A stretch of 64,000 nucleotides of DNA from an uncultured Candidatus Saccharibacteria bacterium. GTDB taxonomy: Bacteria; Patescibacteriota; Dojkabacteria; B142; OLB20. Below the pieces are notes generated by a model. The model had not been told where the DNA came from, did not search any database, and saw only the letters and a list, made by a program, of their open reading frames with translations. This document shows positions 32,508 through 64,000 of the stretch, one piece after another (within the stretch, counting starts at the first letter, position 1; every line of letters begins with the position of its first letter). The DNA lies in assembly GCA_964461915.1 (NCBI GenBank), contig CAYWVD010000001.1, positions 156,671 through 220,670 on the forward strand. Direction: 5' to 3'. Position numbers and translations under genes: made by a program.

Positions 32508-32518
32508 TATAATTATCC

Positions 32519-32843
32519 CAACTGATCAAGATAGTAGCCCCTAAAATAATATTTATGGGGAGGAAAGTCCGGACTCTAAGCTAAGTAAAAATTAGCAAAA
32601 AGTACCATGGAAACATGGATAGGTGTGAGCTTATAGAACAGGGCCACAGAAAGCAAAATCCCAAGTCTAATCGATTTGGAGATTGTGAAAAGGTGGTGTA
32701 AAAGACCACCGGTTTCAACTGTAAAGTTGAAATGCTGGGTAACCCTTACTTTAGAGCAACTAGAAAGTCTCTAGGCATAGATAAATTACTATCTGAATCC
32801 AAAACTAATTGGAAGATACAGAATCTGGCTTATTGATCAGTTA
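32519..32843 (+). ncRNA. rnpB: RNase P RNA (bacterial type)
   Basis: P4 strands GGAGGAAAGTCCGG (32559-32572) and ACAGAATCTGGCTTA (32817-32831). P1 pairs AACTGATCAA with TTGATCAGTT. Internal ACAGAAAGCAAA and GGTGGTGTAAAAGACCACC (GGUAA-type P15/16 region). Confidence 0.85.
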
Positions 32844-32846
32844 AAA

Positions 32847-33548
32847 TTATTCTTCTCTGGTTCGAGATAATCCTTGGATCCTAAAAACGAAGTACAATAG
32901 TTGACCTAGTGACTGAAAAAGTCCAGCAACATAGGTAAGAGAAGCAGCTACAAGTACCGATTTTATCGCAGGCTTTTCAGATGGGAAGATCAATTGATTT
33001 CTCTCCAAAATTTTTATTGCTCTATCACTTGCATCAAATTCCAATGGGACTGTCACTAGTGCAAAAACAGTTGCAAGCGAAAAGAAAATAACACCTAACC
33101 ATGCTAGACTTGAGAATTCAAGTACGAACCCTATTATGAGTAAAATGTAACCAAAATTCGTGCCAAAATTAACAAGGGGTACTATTCCTGTCCTAATCCT
33201 GAACAAAAAATTATTCTTTTGATGTTGAACTATATGACCAAGTTCATGGGCGGTAATTGCTGTGGAAGTAATAGTGCGTCCGTGTGCGCTATCAATCGAT
33301 AAATTTAATGTGTGACTTGAAGGATCATATGATTCACTCAGCAAATCGGGTAGTAGATTAATTTGGAATTTTATATTTTCACTTCTGCCGATTTGTTCGG
33401 CAACTTCTATTCCAGTTAACTTCCTTTTAGTTTCGATTTGGTTATATTTTTTTACCGAATAATTTAAAAATAAAGTAGCACCTAATCCTAAAATCAATGC
33501 AGGAAGGGCGAAAAGAAGATATATCGGATCAAAAGTCGGGAAGAACAT
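32847..33548 (-). CDS. Zn_peptidase_2 family putative neutral zinc metallopeptidase (membrane)
   Basis: ITAHELGHIVQHQKNNFLFRIRTGIVPLVNFGTN (HExxH) and TLPVEFDASrRA-like VTVPLEFDASDRAIKIL. Confidence 0.8.
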   Translation of the reverse strand: MFFPTFDPIYLLFALPALILGLGATLFLNYSVKKYNQIETKRKLTGIEVAEQIGRSENIKFQINLLPDLLSESYDPSSHTLNLSIDSAHGRTITSTAITAHELGHIVQHQKNNFLFRIRTGIVPLVNFGTNFGYILLIIGFVLEFSSLAWLGVIFFSLATVFALVTVPLEFDASDRAIKILERNQLIFPSEKPAIKSVLVAASLTYVAGLFQSLGQLLYFVFRIQGLSRTREE

Positions 33549-47582: not shown

Positions 47583-47656
47583 TCGGGATGGTGAGACTTG
47601 AACTCACAACCTTGCGCCCCCGAAGCGCACATTCTAGCCAATTGAACTACATCCCG
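47583..47656 (-). tRNA. tRNA-Pro (anticodon CGG)
   Basis: Manual fold gives acceptor CGGGATG/CATCCCG, D-arm GTTC-AATTGGCTA-GAAT, anticodon arm TGCGC-TTCGGGG-GCGCA (anticodon CGG, G37), T-arm GTGAG-TTCAAGT-CTCAC, discriminator A, no encoded CCA. 74 nt. Confidence 0.85.
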
Positions 47657-49435: not shown

Positions 49436-50019
49436 TGTCAAAAAAAAGAAAGTTTTTATTAATTTTAATATTAATTTTCTTATCTGTCTGTTTTGTCTTT
49501 TTTGTTTTACCAGGCAAAACAAGTGATGATTTTAGTTCTAATCAAATTCAAACAACCATGAAAATTTCTATTGATGATTTTGTTGATGGAGAAAGAATGC
49601 CCACAAAGTATACTTGCCAGGGTCAAAACATTGCTCCGATAATCAATATTTCCGAAGTACCAAGTGAAGCTAAAAGTCTTCTCCTATTGGTTGAAGATCC
49701 TGATGCTCCGGGTGATATTTGGAATCATATGATCATTTGGGGAATTAAGCCTATTGATCAGGTCCTTGATCTGAATAACCTTCCTGATAATGTTATTGTC
49801 GGTAAAAATAGCTGGGGTAAGAATAATTATGGTGGACCATGTCCTCCATCAGGAACTCATAGATATTTTTTCAATCTATATGCACTTGATTATGATTTAA
49901 AATTAGATAAAAACGCATATTCATCTTTAATTAAAGATGAAATTTCAGGGCATGTCCTTCAGTATGCAAAACACATGGGAACTTTTAGTAAAGTATCAAA
50001 TCCTACTGAATCTCCTTAA
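49435..50019 (+). CDS. YbhB/YbcL family PEBP (Raf-kinase-inhibitor-like) protein, secreted
   Basis: Signal peptide. DPDAP...CPPSGTHRYFFNLYALD are PEBP motifs. Confidence 0.8.
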   Translation: MSKKRKFLLILILIFLSVCFVFFVLPGKTSDDFSSNQIQTTMKISIDDFVDGERMPTKYTCQGQNIAPIINISEVPSEAKSLLLLVEDPDAPGDIWNHMIIWGIKPIDQVLDLNNLPDNVIVGKNSWGKNNYGGPCPPSGTHRYFFNLYALDYDLKLDKNAYSSLIKDEISGHVLQYAKHMGTFSKVSNPTESP

Positions 50020-50653
50020 TTAAATCTCTGGTGTTATTTTGTGGTGAATTAACAAGCGGAGAAACTTTATAATTCGTGATTTCTTCGGAAGGTGTAAATG
50101 TCTTTAAACTATCAAGCATGCTTTTATCAAAGTCTTTTGATAGCCAGAGATTTTCAAGTTCTTTATTCAAAATTAGAGGCATACGGTCATGAATCGATTC
50201 AATCGTCGTATTGGGCTTAGTGGTCACAATAGTAAAACCTAAATAGTTTTTATTGGTTTTAGGGTCAAAAAATTCATCAAAAAGTCCCGCAAAAGCAAAG
50301 TAGTTGTCATCATTTGGTTTAATATAAATTGGTTCTTTTTTCCCATTTTCGGTACCTTTCCATTCATAAAATCCGCTGGCTGGGATTATGCATCTTTTTG
50401 AATCAATTAATTTTTTGAAGAAAAATTTCTCATCTAGTGTTTCAACCTTTGCATTGATAATTTGAAATTTTTCGCTTGGGGCAAGTCCCCATTTCATAAT
50501 TACTGGCTTGTTTTTGTTTTCATCACCTAAAATGACGACGCTAGATTGGCCTGGAGCTATATTGTAACTTGATGGGAACTCAATTAAAACTCTATCTAAA
50601 TTAAAACGAGGATAAAATCTTTCATCAATATCGAGTGTAAATCTTCCGCACAT
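50003..50653 (-). CDS. SOS-response-associated peptidase (SRAP/YedK, abasic-site processing protein)
   Basis: MCGRFTLD N-terminus (catalytic Cys2) and an SRAP fold. Confidence 0.85.
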   Translation of the reverse strand: MCGRFTLDIDERFYPRFNLDRVLIEFPSSYNIAPGQSSVVILGDENKNKPVIMKWGLAPSEKFQIINAKVETLDEKFFFKKLIDSKRCIIPASGFYEWKGTENGKKEPIYIKPNDDNYFAFAGLFDEFFDPKTNKNYLGFTIVTTKPNTTIESIHDRMPLILNKELENLWLSKDFDKSMLDSLKTFTPSEEITNYKVSPLVNSPQNNTRDLIKEIQ

Positions 50654-51110: not shown

Positions 51111-52397
51111 ATGAATTCTAGAATTTTTGCATTAGTAGATTGTAACAACTTTTATGTCAGTTGCGAAAGGGTTTTTAATCCGAAACTCGAAAATAAGCCG
51201 ACAGTAGTGCTATCAAATAACGATGGATGCGTGATTGCTAGGTCACAAGAAGTAAAAGATCTTGGTGTAACTATGGGCGCTCCAATTTTCAAACTAAAAG
51301 AGTTGGTTGAAAGGGAGAAGATAAATGTATATTCGGCAAACTTCCCTTTGTACGGCGATATGTCACATAGGGTGATGGCAACAATTTCAGAGTTCGTGCC
51401 TGATGTAGAAATATATTCCATAGATGAGGCCTTTTTAGATTTAACTAATTTAAGGGTTCCCGATCTAACGAAATTTTGCATAAAACTCCGAAAAACAATC
51501 TATAAGTGGACAGGAATCCCTGTCAGTATTGGTGTTGCCCCAACAAAGACCTTAGCAAAAGCCGCAAATAAACTAGCCAAAAAACAATTTCGTGATATTG
51601 GTGTGTTTAATTTTTTTGAACATTTAGGTAACGAGGAAGAATTCCTAAAACTAATACCTGTAGGTGATTTGTGGGGGGTGGGCAGAGCCTATACAAAGTT
51701 TTTAAATCAACATAATATTAATAATGCATTTGAACTTAAAAGTCTTGACATCGGATATGTAAAACAGGTTATGACAGTTGCCGGTGAAAGATTGGTTATG
51801 GAATTAAATGGTGAACCTTGTTATTTGCTCGAGAAAAACCCAAAGCTTAAAAAAAATATTGCTTTTACAAGATCATTTGGTGAATATCAAACAAAACTAA
51901 ATCAAGTTGAAGAAGCTGTTGCTTACTTCTCTAGAAAAATCGGTGAAAAACTAAGAAAAGAAAAGGAATTAGCTCAGTTTTTGCAGGTATTTATTCTTAC
52001 GAACTTCCACAATAAAAATCTCCCTCAATATCATAATTCCGTGATAATAAAATTAGAAAGGCCTACTAATAATTCGATTACATTAATAAAAGAGGCATTA
52101 AGAGGACTAAAATATATTTTCAAAGATGGTTATCAATACAAAAAAGCGGGTGTTATATCACTGGGTTTGATACCTGAAAGCCATAGACAATATGACTTCT
52201 TTTGTGATCCAAATGATGAAAAGTATCTACAAAAAGACTTAATGGCAACTCTTGACAAGATAAATTTTGAAGTTAATTCAGATTCTGTGAAATTTGCCGC
52301 TGAAGGTGTAAGTAGAAAGTGGTGGATGAACCAAACAAAGAAATCCCAAAGATATACTACAAATTGGAAAGAATTGCCTAAAGCTATTGCTGAATAG
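51111..52397 (+). CDS. umuC: Y-family translesion DNA polymerase UmuC
   Basis: [19 protein letters not shown] (UmuC: MFALcDvNaFYASCE), plus palm/fingers and little-finger domains. 428 aa. Confidence 0.85.
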
Positions 52398-52539: not shown

Positions 52540-53025
52540 ATGGCAAAAGCCAAAAATTTCAAGGGTTTTACCCTTATTGAAATTCTAGTGGTTGTGGCCT
52601 TAATTGCAATTTTAACTGCAATTACTTTTATTGCCATCAACCCAGCAAAGAATTTCGCAGATACAAGGAATGCACAAAGAAGTTCTGATGTAGGTCAGAT
52701 TCTAAATGCAATGACTCAGTACACTTCTGATTCAGGAAGAACAACAGCAGCTCTAGAAACAGAATTTGCTGTAACAATTCCTTCATGCGATGCAGTAGCA
52801 CCTTCACCAACAGCAATTCAAATTGGATCAGGTGTCGGATTATTAAACTTGGGTGATGCAACAAAAGCATTAGTTGATGAATATATTGTTGGTATCCCTT
52901 TTGATCCAAGCACAGGTACAGCAGCTGCTACAAATTACTGGGTATGTCAAACTACAGGTGGAAGACTACAAGTTAGTGCTCCAGGTGTAGAAAATGGTAA
53001 ACCAGTCATCGTAGTAAAGAGATAA
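52540..53025 (+). CDS. pilA: type IV pilin (prepilin N-methylation motif)
   Basis: KGFTLIEILVVVALIAILTAI is the class III signal with the Glu5 motif. Confidence 0.85.
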   Translation: MAKAKNFKGFTLIEILVVVALIAILTAITFIAINPAKNFADTRNAQRSSDVGQILNAMTQYTSDSGRTTAALETEFAVTIPSCDAVAPSPTAIQIGSGVGLLNLGDATKALVDEYIVGIPFDPSTGTAAATNYWVCQTTGGRLQVSAPGVENGKPVIVVKR

Positions 53026-53042
53026 AATTTTATTAAAATTTT

Positions 53043-53077
53043 AAATCCCGGCTAGTAGTAGTCGGGATTTTTTTTGC
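53043..53077 (+). terminator. rho-independent terminator after pilin gene
   Basis: AATCCCGGCTA-GTAG-TAGTCGGGATT followed by T9. The stem is nearly identical to the rpsI terminator at 8132-8162. Confidence 0.65.
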
Positions 53078-53113
53078 CTTTATTTTTCCCTTCAAAACCT
53101 GTAAATTATTACT

Positions 53114-54388
53114 ATGGATTCCGGAAAAAGTAAAAAAGTAGATTCTTCTAAAGAGGAATCGACAGAAACTCAAGCGGCTGCTCCCCGTAATGCTGGGGAA
53201 TCTTCTAATATTGGCAGTCTTCTTGAAAATATTGTATTTACTGCGCTTGATCAAAAAGCGTCAGATATTCATATTGAACCAACCGAAAAAGATGTTCTTG
53301 TTAGGTATAGGATCGACGGTATGTTAAAGGATATTCTCTTAATTGATAAATCATTTGAGGATGAACTTATTTTTAAAATTAAAATTTCTGCAAGGCTTAG
53401 GACTGATGAACATTTTTCGCCGCAAGATGGTCGTATTTCGTTTAAAGTCCCTGAATATGGTAAGTTAGATACTCGTATATCAATCCTACCTACTACAAAG
53501 GGTGAAAAAATTGTAATTAGACTTTTAACTAAAGATGCAAAACAATTGGGCCTTGATAAACTTGGAATTACAGGAAAAGGACTCGAAACTGTTGAAAAGA
53601 ACTATGAAAAGCCTTGGGGCATGGTTTTAGCGGTAGGGCCTACTGGATCGGGTAAAACTACAACTTTATATTCGATATTACAAATTATAAATTCTCGCGA
53701 AAAAAATGTTACTACCATTGAAGATCCGGTAGAATTTGACATTGATGGAATCAACCATATACAGGTTAATCCTAATGGAAACTTAACCTTTGCCAATGGG
53801 TTAAGATCTATTTTGAGGCAGGATCCTGATATTGTTATGGTTGGTGAAATTAGAGATACCGAAACTGCTAGGATTGCTATCAATGCTGCAATGACTGGGC
53901 ACTTGGTTTTATCAACCTTACATACAAATGATGCTGTAACTACGATTCCGCGTTTGATTGATATGGGGGTAGAGCCTTATCTTGTTGCATCTACAGTTAA
54001 CTTAGTAATTGCTCAAAGGCTTGCCAGACTTTTATGTCCAAAGTGTAAAGAAGAATATAAGTTAACTAAAGAAGAAGAGGACGATTTAGAAATGGCAAGG
54101 CCTGATATTTCCAGGAAAATTAATAAAGGGCAAAAATTCTTTAGGCATAAAGGATGTAAAGAATGCGGAGATTCTGGATATAAAGGTAGGATTGGACTTT
54201 ACGAAATCATGGAAATTACTAAAGAAATGCGTGCCATCATTAATAATGAAGAGTTTTCTGTCGATGATCTTTATAAAGAAACTGATAAATCTGGTCTTGT
54301 GACATTGTTGCAAGATGGGATCAATAAATTAACTGAAGGTTTAATTGATATCCCCGAACTTATAAGAGTTACTGCTTTAAATGAATAA
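53114..54388 (+). CDS. pilB: type IV pilus assembly ATPase PilB/GspE family
   Basis: Walker A LAVGPTGSGKTTTL, Asp/His boxes, and a tetracysteine CPKC...CKEC zinc motif typical of PilB/GspE. Confidence 0.85.
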   Translation: MDSGKSKKVDSSKEESTETQAAAPRNAGESSNIGSLLENIVFTALDQKASDIHIEPTEKDVLVRYRIDGMLKDILLIDKSFEDELIFKIKISARLRTDEHFSPQDGRISFKVPEYGKLDTRISILPTTKGEKIVIRLLTKDAKQLGLDKLGITGKGLETVEKNYEKPWGMVLAVGPTGSGKTTTLYSILQIINSREKNVTTIEDPVEFDIDGINHIQVNPNGNLTFANGLRSILRQDPDIVMVGEIRDTETARIAINAAMTGHLVLSTLHTNDAVTTIPRLIDMGVEPYLVASTVNLVIAQRLARLLCPKCKEEYKLTKEEEDDLEMARPDISRKINKGQKFFRHKGCKECGDSGYKGRIGLYEIMEITKEMRAIINNEEFSVDDLYKETDKSGLVTLLQDGINKLTEGLIDIPELIRVTALNE

Positions 54389-54403
54389 TATTAAATAAAT
54401 AAA

Positions 54404-55567
54404 ATGGAGAAAATTAAACAAGAGAATAAACCCGAAGTTAAAATCGAAGAAAAGAAGGCGCTTAAAACAAGCACTGTAGTTGCTTCGAAATATATCAAAA
54501 AGAAAAGCGGTAGTGTTTATTTCGGTAAAATTAGTCCCCTAAAAATGGCTTTTGCATTTAGGCATATGGGGATTATGTTAAAGTCGGGGCTTTCACTAGA
54601 GGCTGCAATTAAGGTGCTTTCCGAGCAGTTAGATGATGCAAGGCTAAGAGAAATTTTTGCAGAAATTTTATTCGGAATAAACGAAGGTGTTTCGATTGCT
54701 GAAACAATGCGTAATCATCGAGATATTTTTTCTAACCTTGTAATTTCTTTGATCAGTTCGGGAGAACAAGGTGGAACACTTGAAAAGAATTTATTCATTT
54801 TAGCTGACTATTTAAAGAAGGCTCATGAACTTCAACAAAAGGTTAAAGGTGCAATGATTTATCCTTTGATTGTTTTGGGTATGACAAGTGTTGAAGTACT
54901 AGGTGTAGTATATTTTCTTTTACCAAGGCTTGATTCAATGTTTTCAACATTTGGTGAATTGCCAGCTTTTACGAAAGTAATATTAGATGCTGCAAAGTTT
55001 ATTCGTGACAATACAGTCTCCTTATTACTCATATTAATAGTATTCATAATTACTTTATCTTTGTTTTTAAATAAGACAAAAATTGGCAAAAGGATAAAGA
55101 ATTGGTTTGCTTTAAACTTCCCTGTATTTAAAAATCTTAATAAAAACACAATTTTATCTAATTTTTCGCAAACTTTTGCACTTTTACTTGAAAACGGAAT
55201 TCCGATTACAAAAGCTTTAGAAATAGCGGCAGAAACAAGCGATAATGTTTATTATCAAGAGTCTTTAGCCAAAATTAATGAAAGTGTTCAAGGGGGACTA
55301 AGTATGGCTCAATCGATGGAAAAATTCCCCAAGTATTTTCCCCCCACTTATTCAAAAATGGTTGAAATCGGAGAACAGACGGGTTCTTTGTCTGAAACAC
55401 TTTTATATGTTCACGAATTTTATGCCGAAGAAGCTGCTGAAGTCAGTAATAATCTTGCGACTTTACTTGAACCAATTCTTTTGATTTTTATTGGTGTCAT
55501 GATCGGAGGATTAGCAATGATTATTATAGGTCCAATTTATCAGCTAATGGGTACTATCAATGGTTAA
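54404..55567 (+). CDS. pilC: type IV pilus platform protein PilC/GspF family
   Basis: Two GspF repeats and 3 TM segments. 387 aa. Confidence 0.8.
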   Translation: MEKIKQENKPEVKIEEKKALKTSTVVASKYIKKKSGSVYFGKISPLKMAFAFRHMGIMLKSGLSLEAAIKVLSEQLDDARLREIFAEILFGINEGVSIAETMRNHRDIFSNLVISLISSGEQGGTLEKNLFILADYLKKAHELQQKVKGAMIYPLIVLGMTSVEVLGVVYFLLPRLDSMFSTFGELPAFTKVILDAAKFIRDNTVSLLLILIVFIITLSLFLNKTKIGKRIKNWFALNFPVFKNLNKNTILSNFSQTFALLLENGIPITKALEIAAETSDNVYYQESLAKINESVQGGLSMAQSMEKFPKYFPPTYSKMVEIGEQTGSLSETLLYVHEFYAEEAAEVSNNLATLLEPILLIFIGVMIGGLAMIIIGPIYQLMGTING

Positions 55568-56024
55568 TCATAGTCGAATCAAAGCCTTTACTCTCATCGA
55601 GATATTAATCGTCTTAGGTATGTTCTTGGGAATTTTAGTTATAGTTTTGCCAATAGGAATAAGGGAATTACAGTTTAATAAAGCCCAAAACACTGCTTAT
55701 GACATTGAATCATCAATACATTTAGCTCAGAGTAATAGTTTTAGTGGACTTGATTCAAGTAGCTATGGTGTAGCTATTTTTAATGATCATTATATTTATT
55801 TTAAAGGGGATTCTTTAAGTACGGCTATTAGCCAAGATGAGTTCCGATACAACAACGGTGTGAGTATTAAAAATAATTTATTAAATCCCTCTACTACAGA
55901 AATTGTTTTTCAAGCTGGAGATTTAAAAGCAAATTGCGAGGGTTCTTTTGACATCGGAAGTGATGTTGATAATTATCGAATAACTATAAATAAAATAGGA
56001 TTAATCAGTTTGTTAAAATTATGA
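55560..56024 (+). CDS. prepilin-type minor pilin/pseudopilin
   Basis: KAFTLIEILIVLGMFLGIL N-terminal methylation motif. Confidence 0.7.
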   Translation: MVNHSRIKAFTLIEILIVLGMFLGILVIVLPIGIRELQFNKAQNTAYDIESSIHLAQSNSFSGLDSSSYGVAIFNDHYIYFKGDSLSTAISQDEFRYNNGVSIKNNLLNPSTTEIVFQAGDLKANCEGSFDIGSDVDNYRITINKIGLISLLKL

Positions 56025-57973
56025 CGAATAAAAAAAATAAAAATTTAAAGGGATTTACATTGGTTGAGATTATGCTCGCCATAACACTTTTTGTAATGAT
56101 AATTTTTGTTGTTGCTAATTTCTCGATAGATTCATTGACTGGGAGTAGAAATGCTTCAATAAGAACAACTGCTGTAAGTAAAGTTAAAGAGATCCAAAAT
56201 GCAATTAATATTATTAAAAATGATAAGTGGAGTACTGTTGTTCTAAATACTGATGTAGGGCCTATGCATATTGAGTTCACTGATGGAACATATACTTTAG
56301 AAGCAGGAGAACTTGTTGAAAATGGTGTTACATATTCTATAAACATCAAATCAATTCAAAGAGATATCAATGGTGATATTGTTGAATCTGGGGGGACTGT
56401 TGATCCTCATACTAGATCAATCGAAATCAATGCGTCTTGGCAGGGCACAGGGGAAAATCCTATGCAAATTGATTCAGAATTCTTTGTAAACGATTGGAGC
56501 ACTTTAGAACTTCTTAGTACAACAAAATCCGATTTCGATTTGGGGACTTTCTTTCAAGCAAGATCGACTTCTGTTGCAGATGGTGAAATTTCATTACAAC
56601 AAATAATTTATCCCGATTGGTGTAAACCTGCATTGAGTCTTAATGAGTATGATATTCCAGGTGCGGCAACTGCTAAAACATTGTTTTCATATATTGGCGA
56701 AACATATTTAGGAACTGGTGGAAATTCTACTGGTGTAGCTTTTACAAAATTGACAATTGAAGGCATTGATAATCCGACTATAAATGTTGAAGGAGAATTT
56801 AATGGGTATTTAACTAATAATATTTTTGTTCTTGGTGATTATGCATTTTTAGGTACAACAAATGATTCTAAAGAAGTGGTCATTTTAGATATTTCTGCAA
56901 CTCCATATACTGAGGTGGGTTATTTTAATACTTCAAGGACTGATGATGCTAATTCAGTTTATGTGGTGGGTAATATTGGATATGTAGCTGCCGGCAAATA
57001 TGTTTATACTTTTGATGTTACTTCAAAAACAGGTTCAAGAACTGCTCTAGGGTCGATTAAAGTTTCCCTTAATCAAAATTGGGGGAAATTATCAGCAGTT
57101 AGTCAAATCGTCGTTAAAAATAATTATTTATTTGCCTCATTAGATGAGGATTGGTATGAATTAGCAATTGTTAATGTTGCAAATCCTGCAAGCATGAATA
57201 TTACTTCTCAAACTAGCGTAAATAATCAACAGACATTTGATATTTATGTTAGTGAAAATTCAAATCGAACTTATTTTGGTACCGGAAATTCTTCTAGTGA
57301 AAGAGAATTTTTTATTCTCGATACAACATCAAAATCCGGAGCAAGACCAATTATAGGAAGATATGATACAAACGGAATGAGCGTTAACGGAATTGCTATT
57401 ATCGAAAAAGATAAAAGGGCGGTACTAGTTGGTAAAAATGGAGAAGAATACCAGGCCGTGAATATTTCAAATGAGGCTTCACCAGTAAGATGTGGCGGAA
57501 TGCAACTAGATAGCGGCATTAATGATATTGATTCTGTTTCTGATGTCCAAACTAACTCTTTTTCCTACATTTTAACAGCCAATACAACGAAAGATTTTCT
57601 GGTATTAAGAGGGGGGCCTGGACTTGGTGGAGACGATCAAGGTTATGGGTATCCAACAAATGGTGAATTTGAATCTCGAGTATATGATACGGGGTCGGCT
57701 TCTACCTACTTTTATTTATTGGATGCTTATGGTTTAAAGCCAAGTGGCACAGATATAAAAATTCAGATTAGAACAGGCACGACTAGTGATCTTTCTTCGG
57801 AATCCTATCGAGGGCCAGATGGCACAACTGGAACATATTTTAATATAAATTCATCTAATCCTATGAGTACTTATTTTAATAATAAACAATATTTTCAATA
57901 TAAAGTGATACTTGAATCGGATACTATTTCAACTCCAAGATTAGATGAAATTAAATTAACTTATCAAAAATAA
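56021..57973 (+). CDS. large (650 aa) pilin-like protein with prepilin N-terminus
   Basis: KGFTLVEIMLAITLFVMIIFVV followed by a ~600 aa beta-rich domain. Possible tip or adhesin subunit. Confidence 0.6.
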   Translation: MTNKKNKNLKGFTLVEIMLAITLFVMIIFVVANFSIDSLTGSRNASIRTTAVSKVKEIQNAINIIKNDKWSTVVLNTDVGPMHIEFTDGTYTLEAGELVENGVTYSINIKSIQRDINGDIVESGGTVDPHTRSIEINASWQGTGENPMQIDSEFFVNDWSTLELLSTTKSDFDLGTFFQARSTSVADGEISLQQIIYPDWCKPALSLNEYDIPGAATAKTLFSYIGETYLGTGGNSTGVAFTKLTIEGIDNPTINVEGEFNGYLTNNIFVLGDYAFLGTTNDSKEVVILDISATPYTEVGYFNTSRTDDANSVYVVGNIGYVAAGKYVYTFDVTSKTGSRTALGSIKVSLNQNWGKLSAVSQIVVKNNYLFASLDEDWYELAIVNVANPASMNITSQTSVNNQQTFDIYVSENSNRTYFGTGNSSSEREFFILDTTSKSGARPIIGRYDTNGMSVNGIAIIEKDKRAVLVGKNGEEYQAVNISNEASPVRCGGMQLDSGINDIDSVSDVQTNSFSYILTANTTKDFLVLRGGPGLGGDDQGYGYPTNGEFESRVYDTGSASTYFYLLDAYGLKPSGTDIKIQIRTGTTSDLSSESYRGPDGTTGTYFNINSSNPMSTYFNNKQYFQYKVILESDTISTPRLDEIKLTYQK

Positions 57974-58458
57974 TGCAAAAGAAGAGCTTTAAAGCAATGT
58001 CTTTAATAGAAGTGGTTGTTTACCTCGCATTATTTGGTGTGATTTTTTTATTAATTATTCAATTTGTTATCGATACTAATAAAAACAATAATTTTGCCAG
58101 GCACAGGAATATTATTGAGAAAACAAGCCTTTTTGTATTAAGACAGCTTGATCTGAATGTTAAGCCGGGTATAGTTCTAAATGAAACTGAATCTGTTTTT
58201 GATTCTAACCAAGGGAAACTTGTTTTCTCAAAAGATTCAATTGTTTACCAATACTACATTCAAAATGATAGACTCTTTTTTAATGAGGGAACTAATAATA
58301 GCGAAATGCTTGATCCTAATATGAAAATTAATGCTTTTTTAATTGAAAAGGTGATTAATAATGACCAGACAGTTGGACTTCGAATTACTTTGGAGTTGGA
58401 ATCCATTTCTCTGGATACTGTTAACAAAAATGTAACTACAATGTATTTGATTAAATAG
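57973..58458 (+). CDS. prepilin-type minor pilin
   Basis: KAMSLIEVVVYLALFGVIFLLI. Confidence 0.6.
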   Translation: MQKKSFKAMSLIEVVVYLALFGVIFLLIIQFVIDTNKNNNFARHRNIIEKTSLFVLRQLDLNVKPGIVLNETESVFDSNQGKLVFSKDSIVYQYYIQNDRLFFNEGTNNSEMLDPNMKINAFLIEKVINNDQTVGLRITLELESISLDTVNKNVTTMYLIK

Positions 58459-58460
58459 AC

Positions 58461-58838
58461 ATGAGAACATTCAAAGCCAATATTAGTTTAACTTTGGTAT
58501 TAATTACTGGAGCAGTGTTATTAGTTAGCGGTTTAACACTTTTATATGTTTCGATGGATTCCGCAAGGATATCAAGGGATAGCTATAATTATAATCTGGC
58601 CATAATTAATTCAAAAAGTTGCTTTGAAGAAGCTTTGCATCAAATCAAATTAGATAGTTCATATACAGGCACTTTAGAATTAACTTTTGACATGGGAACT
58701 TGCTCGGTAATAACTTCAAATGATCCAATGAATCCAAATTATAAAATATTAGCAATAGAATCTGATGTAAATGGATATACAAAACAGGTTACAAATACTG
58801 TAGATATTTCTACTTCACCATATTCCACAATAAATTAG
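58461..58838 (+). CDS. pilin-like small protein (PilX-like, hypothetical)
   Basis: Hydrophobic N-terminal helix without the canonical G-F-T-L-E motif. Last gene of the pilus operon. Confidence 0.35.
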   Translation: MRTFKANISLTLVLITGAVLLVSGLTLLYVSMDSARISRDSYNYNLAIINSKSCFEEALHQIKLDSSYTGTLELTFDMGTCSVITSNDPMNPNYKILAIESDVNGYTKQVTNTVDISTSPYSTIN

Positions 58839-58865
58839 GTATCAATCGGGATCGCCTTAAAGAGA

Positions 58866-60263
58866 CTAAAAGAGATTCTTTTCCAAAATATACTTTAATA
58901 GATATTCATCATTAGATTCCGTATATTTTCGATTAAAAAGTTCAGTGGCATAATCAATTCCAATATATCTAATATGCCAAAGTTCCGTATTGTAGCCGGT
59001 TCTATCTTTTTTACCTTCCGGATAAGAAATTACAAAGCCATATTTATGAGCATTATTTTTTAGGAAGTTATACATCTTTATATTTGCGGGTGAATTGTCA
59101 AAATTCCCGCAAGTAGAGCATTTTAAATCGACAGTTGTTCCCAATTGGTGTTCAGATTGACCCGCCTTAGCTGAATAATTATTGGCATTTGCATAAGCTT
59201 GTTGCTTTGATGCTCCATTAATAACTTCTCTTTGAACCCAATACAGGAATGTGCTTTGTTGTGTTGAATACGATCTGAAAGCTGAAATTATTGTAATATT
59301 AATACCTTCTTTTTTAGCATCATTTATTAATAATTTAAGATTATCAACAGTAGTAGATGTTAATTCGCCACCTCCATTAAGGCCTGTAGCTTTTACATTC
59401 GGATAATAATTGCTTGGTAGAGAAAATTGTTTTGATGCTGGAGCAAGCGAACAGTCAGAACAATCCAAATTCAAAGAAAGACCTTTTGATTTAGCCGTAT
59501 TATTAATTAATAAATTTAACTCGGAAATTGAAAATTTAATTTTGTCTAATAGTAAGTCATAATATATATTTACATTATTTGATTTTCCTATTAAATATAC
59601 ATTGGTGTCTACAGGATTGATGGAGTCTGCTTTTTTAAAATCATTTAATTTTGATTCCTTGAGTAAATTTCGTCCAGTCTCTAGTATTTTTGTATTTTGG
59701 GTAGCAACATTTGAGGGGAAGTAAATTGATTCGGTAGAAAGTTCTGACCATTTGTTTTTTAGTAAATTCATGAAAGCATCATTAGATAAAGTGCCTGTTA
59801 TTGTGGTTTTAAAAGGTTCAGCTGTAGTTTCTATATCAAAAACACATTCAAATGTAGTATTAGTATTTGTGAGTTTTAAGGGTATGCTAACTACTTTTTT
59901 ATTGGTTTTTTGATCTTCAAGATTTTGGATCTCAACGCCAAAAGGCAATTCCATAGAATCTATAGTTACTTCAGGAATAGTAACCTTTATTTCTCCGTTT
60001 AACTCAATTGAATGAATTATATTAAATGGGTTAATAGGTGTATTAATGGAATTTAGAATATTCTCGATTTGTTCAGTATTATCTGTGGAATTGATCTTTG
60101 AATAGGATTTTGATTCCAACCATTTATTTAAAGAATCTAAATCACAATTTTTTGAAAGATTATCTGTAAAAGTATTTTGAGTATTAACAAAATCTAAGAA
60201 GATAAGAAAAGATGAGCCAATAAGGATAATCGGGACTAAAACTATTAATAATAATTTTTTCAT
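58866..60263 (-). CDS. membrane-anchored peptidase M15B (VanY-like D-Ala-D-Ala carboxypeptidase) with large N-terminal domain
   Basis: C-terminal motifs SAFRSYSTQ, SEHQLGTTVDL and ELWHIRYIG (SxYRSyxxQ / SEHqxGxAvDl / EpWHxRYvG). Confidence 0.75.
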   Translation of the reverse strand: MKKLLLIVLVPIILIGSSFLIFLDFVNTQNTFTDNLSKNCDLDSLNKWLESKSYSKINSTDNTEQIENILNSINTPINPFNIIHSIELNGEIKVTIPEVTIDSMELPFGVEIQNLEDQKTNKKVVSIPLKLTNTNTTFECVFDIETTAEPFKTTITGTLSNDAFMNLLKNKWSELSTESIYFPSNVATQNTKILETGRNLLKESKLNDFKKADSINPVDTNVYLIGKSNNVNIYYDLLLDKIKFSISELNLLINNTAKSKGLSLNLDCSDCSLAPASKQFSLPSNYYPNVKATGLNGGGELTSTTVDNLKLLINDAKKEGINITIISAFRSYSTQQSTFLYWVQREVINGASKQQAYANANNYSAKAGQSEHQLGTTVDLKCSTCGNFDNSPANIKMYNFLKNNAHKYGFVISYPEGKKDRTGYNTELWHIRYIGIDYATELFNRKYTESNDEYLLKYILEKNLF

Positions 60264-60269
60264 AATGGA

Positions 60270-63200
60270 TTATAGTATCTGAGAATAGATTTTCTCAAGG
60301 TATTCGCGAACCATTCTATCAGTTGAGAAGTCTTTTAGTGCCATCTGCATTGAATTCAACATCATATCTAACCAATCAGAATTATATTCCCCCTCATTAA
60401 TATTATAATAAAGAGGTAGTATCTCATTTTCTAAAATCTCGTACATTTTTTGAGCAGAATCATCTTCTGGGATTTCCCAACCGATTTTGTACCAATTTAC
60501 TTCATCTGTCCAACCATCTCTAGTAGTAAACTGAATAAGTCCATTGGCGGCTGCTTTCATTCCGCTAGTACCAGATGCTTCCTCATAACGATAAGGTGTA
60601 TTTAACCAAATATCAGCGCCACTTACCATTCTTCTTGCGAGTTGCCAATTATATCCGGGAATAATTTCAATTTTATTATGAAATTCTTCTGAAGCAAAGC
60701 ACTGGTTCATTCTTTTTAGAATTTCCTTGCCAATATTATCTTTAGGATGAGATTTCCCGGCAATTAGAATCTGAATAGGTCTTGATGAATTGTTAATTAT
60801 TCTTTTTAGTCTTTCAATATCAGTAATGAGTAGGTCGGGTCGTTTATAAGCAGCCAGTCTTCGCGACCATGCGATAGTTAAAACATCATCTCTAAGATTT
60901 AATCCTAGTTCGGTATTTAGTGAATGAATTAGTTTTTGCTTACGAATTTTATGAGCATTCCAAAGTCTAGCTTTAGGAATCTTTTTAATATTTTCATAAT
61001 TTACGAAAGGACAACCTAAATGCCAGTTTTCACCTAAAAATTCATCATAAAGTTCATGAATTTCAGTACTAACCCAAGTAGGCATATGAACTCCATTAGT
61101 TACAGGAACTAAATTGTATTGAGGCCAAATCTTTTTTGCAGCGACAGAATGAATTTTACTAACTGCATTTGAAACTTTAGCATTTCTCATCCCGAAAATG
61201 GTCATCGAAAAACCTCCAGATGAATAAGTTTTATCGTCTCCAAGTTCAAAAAGTTTAGCAATATCTACTCCAAGTTCTTTAGCTGTTGAACTAAGATATT
61301 TTTCAAATAATAAAAAGTCGAAAATGTCATTACCAGCTTGCTTTAGTGTGTGGTTTGTAAATACAAGCTTATCTTGGGCCTTTTTAAGTGCTGTTTCAAA
61401 ATCTAACTTTTCATCATGCATTAATGATAATGTGTATTCAAAGATGATAAAACCAGAATGGCCTTCGTTCATATGCAAAATTGAAGGATTAATATTTAAA
61501 GCATGCATCAAACGCATACCGCCATAGGCTAAAACCAATTCTTGTCTTATTCGATTTTCTATATCGCCACCATATAAATAACCAGTGATAAGTCGATCTT
61601 CCCATTCTTCATTATCCTCGAAATTTGTATCCAACAAGTAGAGATTGTTCATGCCTACTCTTTGTTTCCAAGCTCGAACCTTTACGATATGGTCAAACAG
61701 CAGTACAGGAATCGTAAGCTGTGTTCCATCGGGATTTTTTACAAGCTCAAGATTAAAATCCATTGGATCCTGATGGATATAGTCTTCAATTTGTTTTCCA
61801 TCCGGAGAAAAGTCTTGATGAAGATAACCTTGATGATAAAAAAGACCAATTGCAACTAAAGGTATTCCGTAATCTGATGTTTGTTTTACAAAATCACCGG
61901 CAAGTATTCCCAAGCCACCTGAATAAATTTGCATCCAGTCTATTAGACCGAATTCCATGCAGAAATACGCAATAGGATTTTCGATTAATTTCTCGAATTT
62001 TTGATTTTTATTAACAAAATTTTCAAAAAAGCAGGTTCGTTTGAAATAGTTATAATAAAGCCTGAGGCTTTGTTCTAATTCCCATTGTTTACTTTCTAAA
62101 ATTTGATTGAGTTTTTCTTTTCCATAATTAGCAATGATTGCCTCTGGCGGAATGTTTTTTCTCCAACCATCACCATACATGTCAATTATTGGCAAAATAT
62201 AATGAGGATTCCAGGTAAACCACAAGTTATTAAGTAATGTTTCAAATTTATCACGATTAGAAGATGTCAAAATCTCTACATCGACTTCTTCGTGTTGAGC
62301 TCCAATAAAAACACCGAAATTTAATAATTTCGAGTAGATTTTGTTTTCGATCTCATGTAAAAGAATATCGCCCTGAGCTTCAATATAAACTTGAATAAAA
62401 TGTTTTCTGTATAAAGAACAATATATTGCAAAGCCTTCTTGAGTCAAAGTGATACCGTCTTTAGTATCGGGAGTGGCATCGGGGAAAATATCCATCAATG
62501 CATAAGTAATATCATCCCAGCTTACAAATTCATTCAATAAGAAATTGTTTTGCCAAGACAATGAGGTCGATAGGTTTAAATTTGAAATCTCTTGAGAAAG
62601 TTTATTATTAGTTTCATTTAACAACTCTAGGATTAAGAAAAGTGTATAGATAGGACTGCTTGAAAAATTGCAGTCACTATAATAATAAGTGCCATTCGAT
62701 TCTGAAGCATATTTAAGTTCTAAATCTCTCAGGCTCCTATTAATAAGTTTAAAACTTGAGGATAATTTTATTCCAACCAGTCCAAATTCTTCTGTTTTTT
62801 TATTGAGTCCTATGGATTGTTTAAGATCAAATCCGACCTTAGAACCTGGATATTTTTTGCTAATTATTTTTAATAAAAGCGCAGATAAATGATTAGGATT
62901 AATTATGATTCCAGTTTCATCAATAAATACTAAACTGTTCCCATCTTGATCAAGACTTATTGCTAGGTCTGCTTTTTCTTCTCTAAGTTTTTCAATTAAT
63001 TTTAAACTGTTATTGGGTACTAAGGGGTTTGGTATATGGTGAGGGAATTGTTCGTTAGGTTCAGTATTTATAGTAATTACATTTACCTTTGTAAACTGTG
63101 ACAAGAATTTTTTAAAAATTATTCCACCAAGTCCATTACCTCCGTCAATGACTATTTTGAAATTTTTCCAATTATTCGGATCGAAAAATTTCATTATGTG

Positions 63201-63680
63201 TAAGAAGTAATCTTTTTCGAGATTTAGTTTGTGATAGAAAAGATTAGAAACTTCATCATTTGGATTGTAATCGGCAACTTCAGAAGCAATTAGAGATTTT
63301 AAAGACTCATATTCAATTTCAAAATTATCTCTTTTGAAAATTTTAAATCCAGACCAGCTGGCATCTCCATGTTGAGGAGAAATAAAAATAGCTGCATCAT
63401 ATAAACCGAGAGTATTTTGGAATTGGAAAATATCGTAGCTGATTTCACCAGCATAATAGATCTCTTTATGTAAGTGTGAAGCTGCAAGGCAAATGATGTT
63501 AAATAATTCTTTTGAATAGTTTCGGAAATCAGTTCCGATAAGGAATTTATCGCCGGGGATAGTTTTTGAAATGGCATAAAATAACTTATAAGCAAAGCTC
63601 TTTGTTATTTGTGTTCGAGCAATACCTTTAATGCCATCGGCATAGAAAATATCCTGTTTTTTTAAATCGGGCAGTGACAT
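60270..63680 (-). CDS. fusion: phosphoglucomutase/phosphomannomutase-like N-domain (~520 aa) + GT35 alpha-glucan (maltodextrin/glycogen) phosphorylase (~600 aa)
   Basis: N-terminal region has DGIKGIA, FISPQHGDASWSGFKIF (compare TASHNPaeyNGiKff) and SLDQDGNSLVFIDETG (compare DGDGDR metal loop). C-terminal region has FCMEFGL...YSGGLGILAGDFVKQ and the PLP-site EASGTSGMKAAANG. Confidence 0.75.
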   Translation of the reverse strand: MSLPDLKKQDIFYADGIKGIARTQITKSFAYKLFYAISKTIPGDKFLIGTDFRNYSKELFNIICLAASHLHKEIYYAGEISYDIFQFQNTLGLYDAAIFISPQHGDASWSGFKIFKRDNFEIEYESLKSLIASEVADYNPNDEVSNLFYHKLNLEKDYFLHIMKFFDPNNWKNFKIVIDGGNGLGGIIFKKFLSQFTKVNVITINTEPNEQFPHHIPNPLVPNNSLKLIEKLREEKADLAISLDQDGNSLVFIDETGIIINPNHLSALLLKIISKKYPGSKVGFDLKQSIGLNKKTEEFGLVGIKLSSSFKLINRSLRDLELKYASESNGTYYYSDCNFSSSPIYTLFLILELLNETNNKLSQEISNLNLSTSLSWQNNFLLNEFVSWDDITYALMDIFPDATPDTKDGITLTQEGFAIYCSLYRKHFIQVYIEAQGDILLHEIENKIYSKLLNFGVFIGAQHEEVDVEILTSSNRDKFETLLNNLWFTWNPHYILPIIDMYGDGWRKNIPPEAIIANYGKEKLNQILESKQWELEQSLRLYYNYFKRTCFFENFVNKNQKFEKLIENPIAYFCMEFGLIDWMQIYSGGLGILAGDFVKQTSDYGIPLVAIGLFYHQGYLHQDFSPDGKQIEDYIHQDPMDFNLELVKNPDGTQLTIPVLLFDHIVKVRAWKQRVGMNNLYLLDTNFEDNEEWEDRLITGYLYGGDIENRIRQELVLAYGGMRLMHALNINPSILHMNEGHSGFIIFEYTLSLMHDEKLDFETALKKAQDKLVFTNHTLKQAGNDIFDFLLFEKYLSSTAKELGVDIAKLFELGDDKTYSSGGFSMTIFGMRNAKVSNAVSKIHSVAAKKIWPQYNLVPVTNGVHMPTWVSTEIHELYDEFLGENWHLGCPFVNYENIKKIPKARLWNAHKIRKQKLIHSLNTELGLNLRDDVLTIAWSRRLAAYKRPDLLITDIERLKRIINNSSRPIQILIAGKSHPKDNIGKEILKRMNQCFASEEFHNKIEIIPGYNWQLARRMVSGADIWLNTPYRYEEASGTSGMKAAANGLIQFTTRDGWTDEVNWYKIGWEIPEDDSAQKMYEILENEILPLYYNINEGEYNSDWLDMMLNSMQMALKDFSTDRMVREYLEKIYSQIL

Positions 63681-63808
63681 AAATTCGAATTTATACTCAA
63701 ATCTATATTACAATTTAGGCTTAACGAGTGCAATTAAAAAATTTTGCTCGAAAGCTTAATACCTAATTAATATAATAAACTTATTCCCAAGTTTTTAAAA
63801 AGCTATAT

Positions 63809-64000
63809 ATGTCCAACAAAAACTATGATGTTTTGGTTCTAGGAGCGGGTCCTGCAGGAATATTTGCTACTTTAGAATTATTAAAGCAATCTAAAAATAA
63901 TCTTAAGATTGGTTTAATTGATATGGGTAAAAGGATTGAAAATAGAGCGCCACACGAAGTGATGATGGGGTTTGGAGGAGCAGGTACATATTCTGATGGA
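63809..64000 (+). CDS. FAD-dependent oxidoreductase (N-terminal part; 3' end outside window)
   Basis: YDVLVLGAGPAGIFATLEL Rossmann FAD motif. Truncated by the window end. Confidence 0.6.
   Translation, partial: MSNKNYDVLVLGAGPAGIFATLELLKQSKNNLKIGLIDMGKRIENRAPHEVMMGFGGAGTYSDG

Follow-up and report, generated by a model that had tools for sequence, protein, structure and literature searches.

Two kinds of well-described enzyme come closest to the protein analysed here. The first is the glycogen phosphorylase (GP) of Segatella copri (ScGP; PDB 9l6i; TIGR02094/'clade 2'), in which H316, R507, R508, K513 and Lys609 have catalytic roles toward substrate, phosphate and pyridoxal 5'-phosphate (PLP). 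Its alpha-helical domain mediates assembly into a pentamer, and the oligomeric state controls substrate access (PMC12912991). The second comprises mutases of the phosphomannomutase/phosphoglucomutase (PMM/PGM) type, such as Xanthomonas citri PGM (5bmn) and Pseudomonas aeruginosa PMM/PGM (1k35), which are free-standing proteins with intact active-site loops. Herein, we describe a gene that joins relatives of both enzymes. It lies at 60270..63680 on the minus strand of a 64,000-nucleotide stretch of DNA (the window) from an uncultured Candidatus Saccharibacteria bacterium, placed within the Dojkabacteria by GTDB (assembly GCA_964461915.1, contig CAYWVD010000001.1, positions 156,671 to 220,670 of the forward strand). 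The mutase-like half shares its four-domain fold with the PMM/PGM enzymes, whereas its loops have been replaced and the whole module is fused to a phosphorylase. The product is best read, with a probability of about 70%, as a phosphorylase carrying a catalytically dead mutase module that is kept under selection for a non-catalytic role.

The gene is a continuous open reading frame (ORF) from ATG to stop that encodes 1136 aa, and its layout of pseudo-phosphohexomutase, DUF3417 and GT35 alpha-glucan phosphorylase follows from the single ORF, the domain matches and the colinear homologues. All of its features lie on the minus strand. The N-terminal alpha-D-phosphohexomutase-like module (aa 1-465; 62286..63680) matches the Pfam models PGM_PMM_I (aa 11-129, E 4e-11; domain I, 63294-63650), PGM_PMM_II (aa 157-257, E 5e-16; domain II, 62910-63212) and PGM_PMM_III (aa 261-365, E 2e-6; domain III, 62586-62900). 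The PGM_PMM_IV model gave no score on the protein; domain IV (about 62316-62570) is nevertheless taken to be present because, in a PDB sequence search, aa 12-453 align to residues 25-465 of X. citri PGM, nearly the whole enzyme (E 8e-27). A junction with a short linker (aa 455-480; 62241..62318) leads from domain IV to the alpha-helical domain of the phosphorylase, with about 20 aa between the module and the DUF3417 region. DUF3417 (PF11897; aa 478-580, 61941..62249; E 1.5e-7, 32 bits against a cut-off of 25) is the alpha-helical region that TIGR02094-type phosphorylases typically have at the N-terminus. The catalytic GT35 core (aa 570-1133; 60282..61973) was assigned by comparison with ScGP and by the NCBIfam family TIGR02094, an alpha-glucan family phosphorylase, which scores 613 bits against a cut-off of 191.7 and is matched over model positions 1-599 of 600; the Pfam Phosphorylase domain covers aa 734-1058 (E 4e-26).

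Pfam, NCBIfam and structure matches thus bear out, well above chance, the central claim of the first-pass annotation, a phosphohexomutase module fused to a GT35 phosphorylase; the profile search it had suggested places the N half among the phosphohexomutases (PGM_PMM_I-III) and the C half in GT35. The total of 1136 aa stands, while the parts need correction: the mutase-like segment measures about 455-465 aa rather than ~520, and the phosphorylase segment, given as ~600 aa, extends to about 660 aa with DUF3417. The three motifs it quoted, SPQHGD (aa 101-106), DQDGNS (aa 244-249) and EASGTSGMK (aa 1034-1042), lie where it had put them. Furthermore, a homologue of 99% identity (P0001) covers 100% of the protein, and seven others (P0002-P0008; 43-66% identity) are colinear over the full length, junction included. 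A frameshift or split gene near nt 62100, which had been raised as a possible refutation, is excluded by the continuous ORF and by this colinearity across the junction. A separate phosphorylase transcript from an internal promoter was also considered and finds no support: there is a TTGACT/TATATT match at 62447-62420, yet the region holds no more promoter-like matches than chance predicts (26 found, 27.3 expected), and an internal start codon for a separate phosphorylase is not conserved.

The fold of the mutase-like half is retained. An AlphaFold2 (AF2) model is confident for aa 1-460 (predicted local distance difference test, pLDDT, about 85-94), and Foldseek matched the modelled N half to X. 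citri PGM (5bmn/5bmp) with template-modelling (TM) scores of 0.87-0.88, normalised to the target. By sequence homology and by this model, the module has the four-domain alpha-D-phosphohexomutase fold, in agreement with the layout first proposed from the letters. The full-length AF2 run, made from an 8-sequence alignment, reached a predicted TM score of 0.61 with pLDDT often below 50 in the C half, so that its interdomain geometry is unreliable.

The active site, in contrast to the fold, has been dismantled. The former phosphoserine loop, SPQHGD (aa 101-106; 63363..63380), aligns to the TASHNP that X. citri PGM shares with the intact fusions described below, with Gln103 at the position of the catalytic Ser. 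The former Mg2+ loop, DQDGNS (aa 244-249; 62934..62951), aligns to DGDFDR/DGDGDR; two Asp are kept, the third is replaced by Asn and the Arg by Ser. The former sugar-binding loop, ASESNGT (aa 325-331; 62688..62708), aligns to GGEMSAH/GGESSAH, so that GExxxH has become SESNGT and the Glu alone is retained, a residue that is itself not conserved across class B, the group of fusions to which the window protein belongs. The former phosphate-binding loop of domain IV, CSLYRKH (aa 421-427; 62400..62420), aligns to RSSNTEP/RPSNTEP; RxSNTEP has given way to SLYRKH and the motif is lost. In addition, the Arg motif YDxRG reads DGIKG. The structural motifs DGGNGLGG (DxxNGxxG) and FPHHxPNP (FPxxxPNP) are retained. 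Because the four functional loops are lost, the mutase half is predicted to be catalytically dead. The first-pass annotation had called the Ser and metal loops degenerate, which proved correct and extends beyond these two to all four.

These replacements bear directly on a bifunctional reading, in which the protein would channel glucan to glucose-6-phosphate (G6P) by means of non-canonical residues. Relatives with the same architecture do carry the canonical residues, and the protein itself keeps His104 as well as two of its three metal-loop Asp. The nucleophilic Ser is Gln, however, and class B conserves no Ser or Thr at or near this position that could serve as an alternative nucleophile; also gone are the phosphate loop and the Arg residues of the metal loop and of YDxRG. 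Bifunctionality of the window protein is therefore regarded as highly improbable. The channelling of glucan breakdown into glycolysis, as originally proposed, finds no support for this protein given the loss of its mutase motifs, and is plausible only for fusions with intact motifs (L007, L052, L058, L011/P0008, P0011, P0013).

The phosphorylase half presents the opposite picture to that of the mutase site. It aligns with ScGP over 653 residues at ~31% identity (E 5e-110), starting at ScGP residue 32. H316, R507, R508, K513 and PLP-Lys609 of ScGP correspond to H777, R940, R941, K946 and K1042, and none of the five varies in the alignment of the fusion proteins. K1042 is the Schiff-base lysine of the PLP site EASGTSGMK (aa 1034-1042; 60555..60581). 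Since the catalytic residues are conserved, every one of them being kept, the phosphorylase half is apparently catalytically competent. The protein has in common with ScGP the DUF3417 alpha-helical N-region, the PLP lysine and the residues for substrate and phosphate. Two differences separate the proteins: the N-terminal 465-aa mutase-like module is found only in the fusion protein, and the beta-sheet domain that ScGP and other clade 2 GPs have in addition at the C-terminus is missing from it, the fusion ending at about residue 712 of 852 in ScGP. In lacking this domain, the protein departs from the Bacteroidota-type, ScGP-like 'clade 2'. It would be a cytoplasmic phosphorylase of alpha-1,4-glucans (glycogen/maltodextrin) that depends on PLP and belongs to the TIGR02094, 'clade 2-like' type; it would release glucose-1-phosphate (G1P) from glucan and phosphate and would not itself convert G1P to G6P.

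The architecture is extremely rare. An exhaustive profile search of 1.84 billion representatives of 50% identity clusters retrieved it in six clusters only (P0002 and P0011-P0015), the next match being an unfused phosphorylase, P0016. A second survey scanned one genome per GTDB species and counted both full-length and fragmentary fusions. It located fusions in metagenome-assembled genomes (MAGs) of Candidatus Dojkabacteria/WS6 (L007, L009, L052 in the complete genome CP129475.1, and L058 in JYNZ01000002.1), in one Doudnabacteria MAG (L011), in MAGs that carry the label 'Saccharibacteria' (L062 and L004, the latter with 87% identity to the window protein) and in unclassified MAGs. With the exception of L008, every fusion locus that bears an organism label belongs to a MAG from the Candidate Phyla Radiation (CPR); the fusion was accordingly recovered in related genomes, as the first-pass annotation had suggested it should be sought. 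The nearest unfused phosphorylases in the same scan come from Desulfomonile-like bacteria, at ~35% identity. L008 (LNGD01000243.1, 1690 bp) is a fusion fragment in an archaeal MAG assigned to 'Candidatus Methanofastidiosum'. It shares 76% identity with the window protein, hardly differs from P0002/L005, and probably stems from a CPR bacterium, having entered the archaeal bin as a contaminant. A search for free-standing copies of the degenerate N-domain, or for other fusion partners, returned only PMM/PGMs of ~450 aa and two 774-aa PGM-family proteins; this was a word-limited profile search, and it missed the fusions themselves.

Sorting the fusions by their mutase motifs yields four classes. 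Class A comprises the intact-motif fusions listed above together with L062, and all five mutase motifs are canonical in it: YDxRG, TASHNP, DGDGDR, GExxxH and RxSNTEP, each of which has been lost from the window protein. The N-domain of L052 scores 393 bits against the PMM/PGM model NF007088. These intact-mutase fusions of Dojkabacteria/WS6 and Doudnabacteria have the same domain order and linker as the window protein, at 43-45% identity, and are plausibly true bifunctional enzymes, to judge by their sequences. Class B includes the window protein, L004, P0002/L005, P0003, P0004, P0005-P0007 and L006; L008 groups with P0002/L005 by its phosphorylase half, and its fragment does not include the mutase loops. 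Within class B, the Ser loop varies among SPQHGD, SPGNGD, SPLTGS and GAASGA, the metal loop reads LDQDG(N/D/S)S in most members and NQAGDA in P0004, and the phosphate loop is absent from all. The sugar-loop Glu is found only in the window protein, L004, P0002/L005 and P0003, and the Arg position of YDxRG is occupied by K, R or L. All eight full-length sequences of the class (1125-1140 aa) keep a near-full-length module. Class C (P0014 and P0015) has degenerated differently (NNDSND; GVEGTR). Class D (L009, 9995-12955; L010, 7574-10531; P0012) consists of proteins of about 985 aa with degenerate motifs from which domains III-IV have been deleted; in P0012, Pfam detects only domains I and II ahead of DUF3417. 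This suggests that class D is a further stage of erosion of the mutase module.

A neighbour-joining tree of the phosphorylase half (200 bootstraps) places all fusions and P0016 in one clade with 100% bootstrap. Class B forms a single clade (100%), class D (87%) has as its sister a Dojkabacteria group of class A (86%), class C (96%) branches apart among the intact forms, and class A is paraphyletic. On this distance tree, the simplest reading would be that the mutase worked in the ancestral fusion and was later inactivated at least three times independently. P0016, an unfused phosphorylase with no mutase gene upstream, has a weakly supported position and may represent either a secondary loss or an outgroup. 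Taken together, the fusion of phosphorylase and mutase would have arisen in CPR bacteria, among Dojkabacteria/WS6 and their neighbours, with the intact and presumably bifunctional form surviving in sister lineages; the window lineage would have lost the mutase chemistry and kept the folded domain under purifying selection.

Phosphorylases of this subfamily have a second fusion partner, a GlgA-like glycogen synthase at the N-terminus; these proteins measure about 1150-1430 aa and have the layout Glyco_transf_5/Glycogen_syn, DUF3417 and Phosphorylase. The domains were checked in P0009 (precomputed Pfam), P0072 and P0053; for P0036, P0042, P0044, P0045, P0052 and P0054, the arrangement is deduced from how long the protein is and where its phosphorylase match lies. 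This fusion, which brings enzymes of synthesis and degradation together on one polypeptide, is much commoner in the census than the PGM fusion.

Whether the dead domain is still under selection was assessed from codon differences and residue conservation. Between the window gene and L004, the proportion of nonsynonymous differences (pN) is 0.099 in the N half and 0.077 in the GT35 core, and the proportion of synonymous differences (pS) is about 0.76 in the N half; as synonymous sites are saturated in this comparison (pS 0.6-1.0), a ratio of the corrected rates (dN/dS) is not meaningful, and the comparison can be read by its low pN and its pN/pS ratio alone. A closer comparison is offered by the metagenomic locus L067 (221-3631; 97.7% identical), which differs from the window gene by 12 synonymous and 4 nonsynonymous codons in the N half and by 55 and 3 in the C part. 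With site counts taken from the L004 comparison, the rough ratios are about 0.08 and 0.014, respectively, and are based on small counts. The synonymous changes are unevenly spread, codons 1-465 holding 12 and the other 671 holding 55; recombination could be the cause, or local differences in mutation or in codon-usage selection. Furthermore, 56 positions of the N half are invariant across class B, about two thirds being peculiar to it in the comparison with class A; the N-terminal MxLPD, W171, Q245 and W388 are examples of such class-B-specific residues. Domains I-II hold most of the invariant positions and are also the part kept in class D, and at the junction E464 and E465 are invariant across class B. 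Constraint on the N half is relaxed in class B, as read from the relative divergence of the two halves, yet purifying selection persists.

These data allow the preferred reading to be weighed against a rival one, in which the N-domain is a functionless relic on its way out, kept only because its removal or unfolding would destabilise the phosphorylase. Motifs have been lost in three separate clades, domains III-IV are already deleted in class D (P0012, L009, L010), the closely related P0016 has neither a mutase module nor an upstream mutase gene, and in class B the N half evolves at a higher relative rate. Such a relic would not be expected to show the strong purifying selection seen in the N half (~0.1 nonsynonymous against saturated synonymous differences, and 12 against 4 in the near-identical pair), the class-specific invariant positions such as Q245, W171 and W388, or a module that is essentially full length in every one of the eight full-length class B sequences. 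A functionless relic is therefore considered unlikely.

The possibility that the old cleft acts as an allosteric sensor, in which a bound sugar phosphate (G1P, G6P or glucose-1,6-bisphosphate) tunes the phosphorylase, has a different kind of support. The fold and the cleft-forming domains are retained, G105, Q245, G247 and S328 in the former loops are invariant across class B, and PGM5 provides the example of an inactive phosphohexomutase with intact substrate binding (PMC7761743). The canonical ligand contacts, however, vary within class B: the phosphate loop is gone, the sugar-loop Glu is patchy and the Arg of YDxRG is K, R or L. Because these contacts are not conserved, a sensor function is rated as distinctly unlikely. 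For the same reason, the earlier suggestion of a regulatory or substrate-binding N-domain holds as far as a non-catalytic role is concerned, whereas substrate binding is disfavoured by contacts that are changed and not conserved in class B.

A phosphorylase with a dead but selected mutase module thus remains the preferred reading, and a pseudo-mutase role in assembly, stability or access control is the most economical hypothesis for what is selected. Such a role is proposed because the module attaches directly to the alpha-helical region that builds the ScGP pentamer. The dead domain would be a structural or oligomerisation appendage on the alpha-helical assembly domain of the phosphorylase, possibly modulating substrate access; we infer this structural or regulatory role from the attachment point and the conservation only. 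Several observations weigh against the preferred reading. The three apparently independent inactivations, the truncation in class D and the unfused P0016 fit a slow loss of the module; the N half diverges about 2.2 times as much as the C half in class B, compared with about 1.5 times in class A; and activity and motif state can disagree, as in PGM5, although there the disagreement runs in the opposite direction, with an intact site that is inactive (PMC7761743).

The genomic context of the fusion gene is consistent with glycogen metabolism. In two class B loci, L001 (58% identity) and L004 (87% identity), the gene order around the fusion is identical to that of the window. The window ends within the start of a divergent gene for an FAD-dependent protein (63809..64000, plus strand); in L001 and L004 this gene is followed by DUF218, an aldehyde dehydrogenase (Aldedh), a GH57 enzyme and a GlgA-like glycogen synthase, the GlgA-like and GH57 genes lying 4-6 kb upstream of the fusion (L001:3695-6192; L004:3650-5990). 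From this gene order, genes for glycogen synthesis and remodelling probably follow just outside the end of the window, which fits a role in glycogen turnover. The GlgA-like ORF measures 332 aa in L004 and 407 aa in L001, and the L004 copy may be truncated. With tblastn, neither the 64-kb window nor the flanks at hand for the relatives yielded a second phosphohexomutase gene; these sequences cover small parts of the genomes concerned.

On the other side, a gene for a VanY-type D,D-carboxypeptidase (58866..60263, minus strand) begins 6 nt downstream of the fusion and is possibly co-transcribed with it. The pair also occurs in L001 and L004, and in L067 an unannotated partial gene of 280 aa lies 6 nt downstream of the fusion. 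The VanY-type protein has an N-terminal hydrophobic segment, and no functional link of this neighbour to glucan metabolism is evident. Convergent to both genes is a type IV pilus-like cluster (52540-58838, plus strand) that is syntenic with L001 and contains a prepilin-type N_methyl protein (52540-53025), a T2SSE ATPase (53114-54388), a T2SSF platform protein (54404-55567) and a 650-aa N_methyl/LVIVD protein (56021-57973), all on the plus strand. Three small ORFs of the cluster have no Pfam matches, and one at 57973-58458 has a pilin-like hydrophobic N-terminus. Further along lie a Y-family (ImpB/MucB/UmuC-like) DNA polymerase gene (51111-52397, plus strand), which likewise flanks the pilus cluster in L001, and, divergent from it, a gene for an SOS-response-associated peptidase (SRAP; 50003-50653, minus strand). 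The only matches above Rfam gathering scores in the window are a bacterial class A RNase P RNA (32518-32848, plus strand; 143.8 bits) and one tRNA (47583-47656, minus strand). The GC content ranges from 28 to 37% within the 8 kb profiled (56000-64000); together with the pilus-like genes, this agrees with a CPR/Patescibacteria genome, which the closest matches suggest is most likely related to Dojkabacteria.

Altogether, these results describe a combination of two textbook families that is extremely rare and undescribed in the literature searched, rather than a new kind of system. The fusions form a natural series within a single small group of genome-reduced bacteria that runs from intact through active-site-dead (the window gene) and truncated forms, with domains III-IV deleted, to possibly unfused ones. 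Such a series could serve the study of how pseudoenzyme domains arise and persist, and could test G1P channelling by a phosphorylase-PGM fusion as well as the handling of glycogen, stored or scavenged, in CPR bacteria with minimal metabolism. It also has a practical side: annotation pipelines are likely to call the window protein a 'phosphomannomutase/phosphoglucomutase' or a bifunctional enzyme, and a metabolic reconstruction that counts it as the PGM of the organism would probably be wrong. A bolder reading, advanced here tentatively and with less than even confidence, is that the CPR fusions are the first natural single-polypeptide enzymes leading from glucan to G6P, and that the mutase of the window lineage was converted into a dedicated regulatory or assembly module controlling the oligomeric state of the phosphorylase or its access to glucan. 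If so, a pseudoenzyme would have been made inside a fusion protein, apparently repeatedly in independent lineages.

Literature searches on the fusion, on DUF3417 and on Dojkabacteria phosphorylases returned no description of this architecture, and the PGM-phosphorylase fusion is not mentioned in the searchable text of a 2024 review of alpha-glucan enzymes. The same text reports other prokaryotic alpha-glucan fusions, namely TreS-Mak, GlgB-MalQ and the chlamydial GlgA-GlgB, whose GlgB half is inactive (Chem Rev 2024, PMC11046441). As far as that text describes them, these proteins also join consecutive or related glucan enzymes, though with partners that differ from the PGM-phosphorylase pair; the chlamydial protein resembles the window fusion further in that one half has been inactivated. 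For the phosphohexomutase fold itself, non-catalytic relatives are known. Bacillus GlmM, a phosphohexomutase with a protein-binding role, was among the fold matches of the modelled N half, in complex with CdaA, and Foldseek also retrieved structures of PGM5. The latter (PGM5/aciculin), an inactive vertebrate paralogue of PGM1, likewise puts the phosphohexomutase fold to non-catalytic use and offers a precedent for a 'pseudo-PGM' (PMC7761743). PGM5 belongs to the PGM1 subgroup, is eukaryotic and free-standing, and has a largely intact substrate site, whereas the window protein has a dismantled one and joins its module to another enzyme of that pathway.

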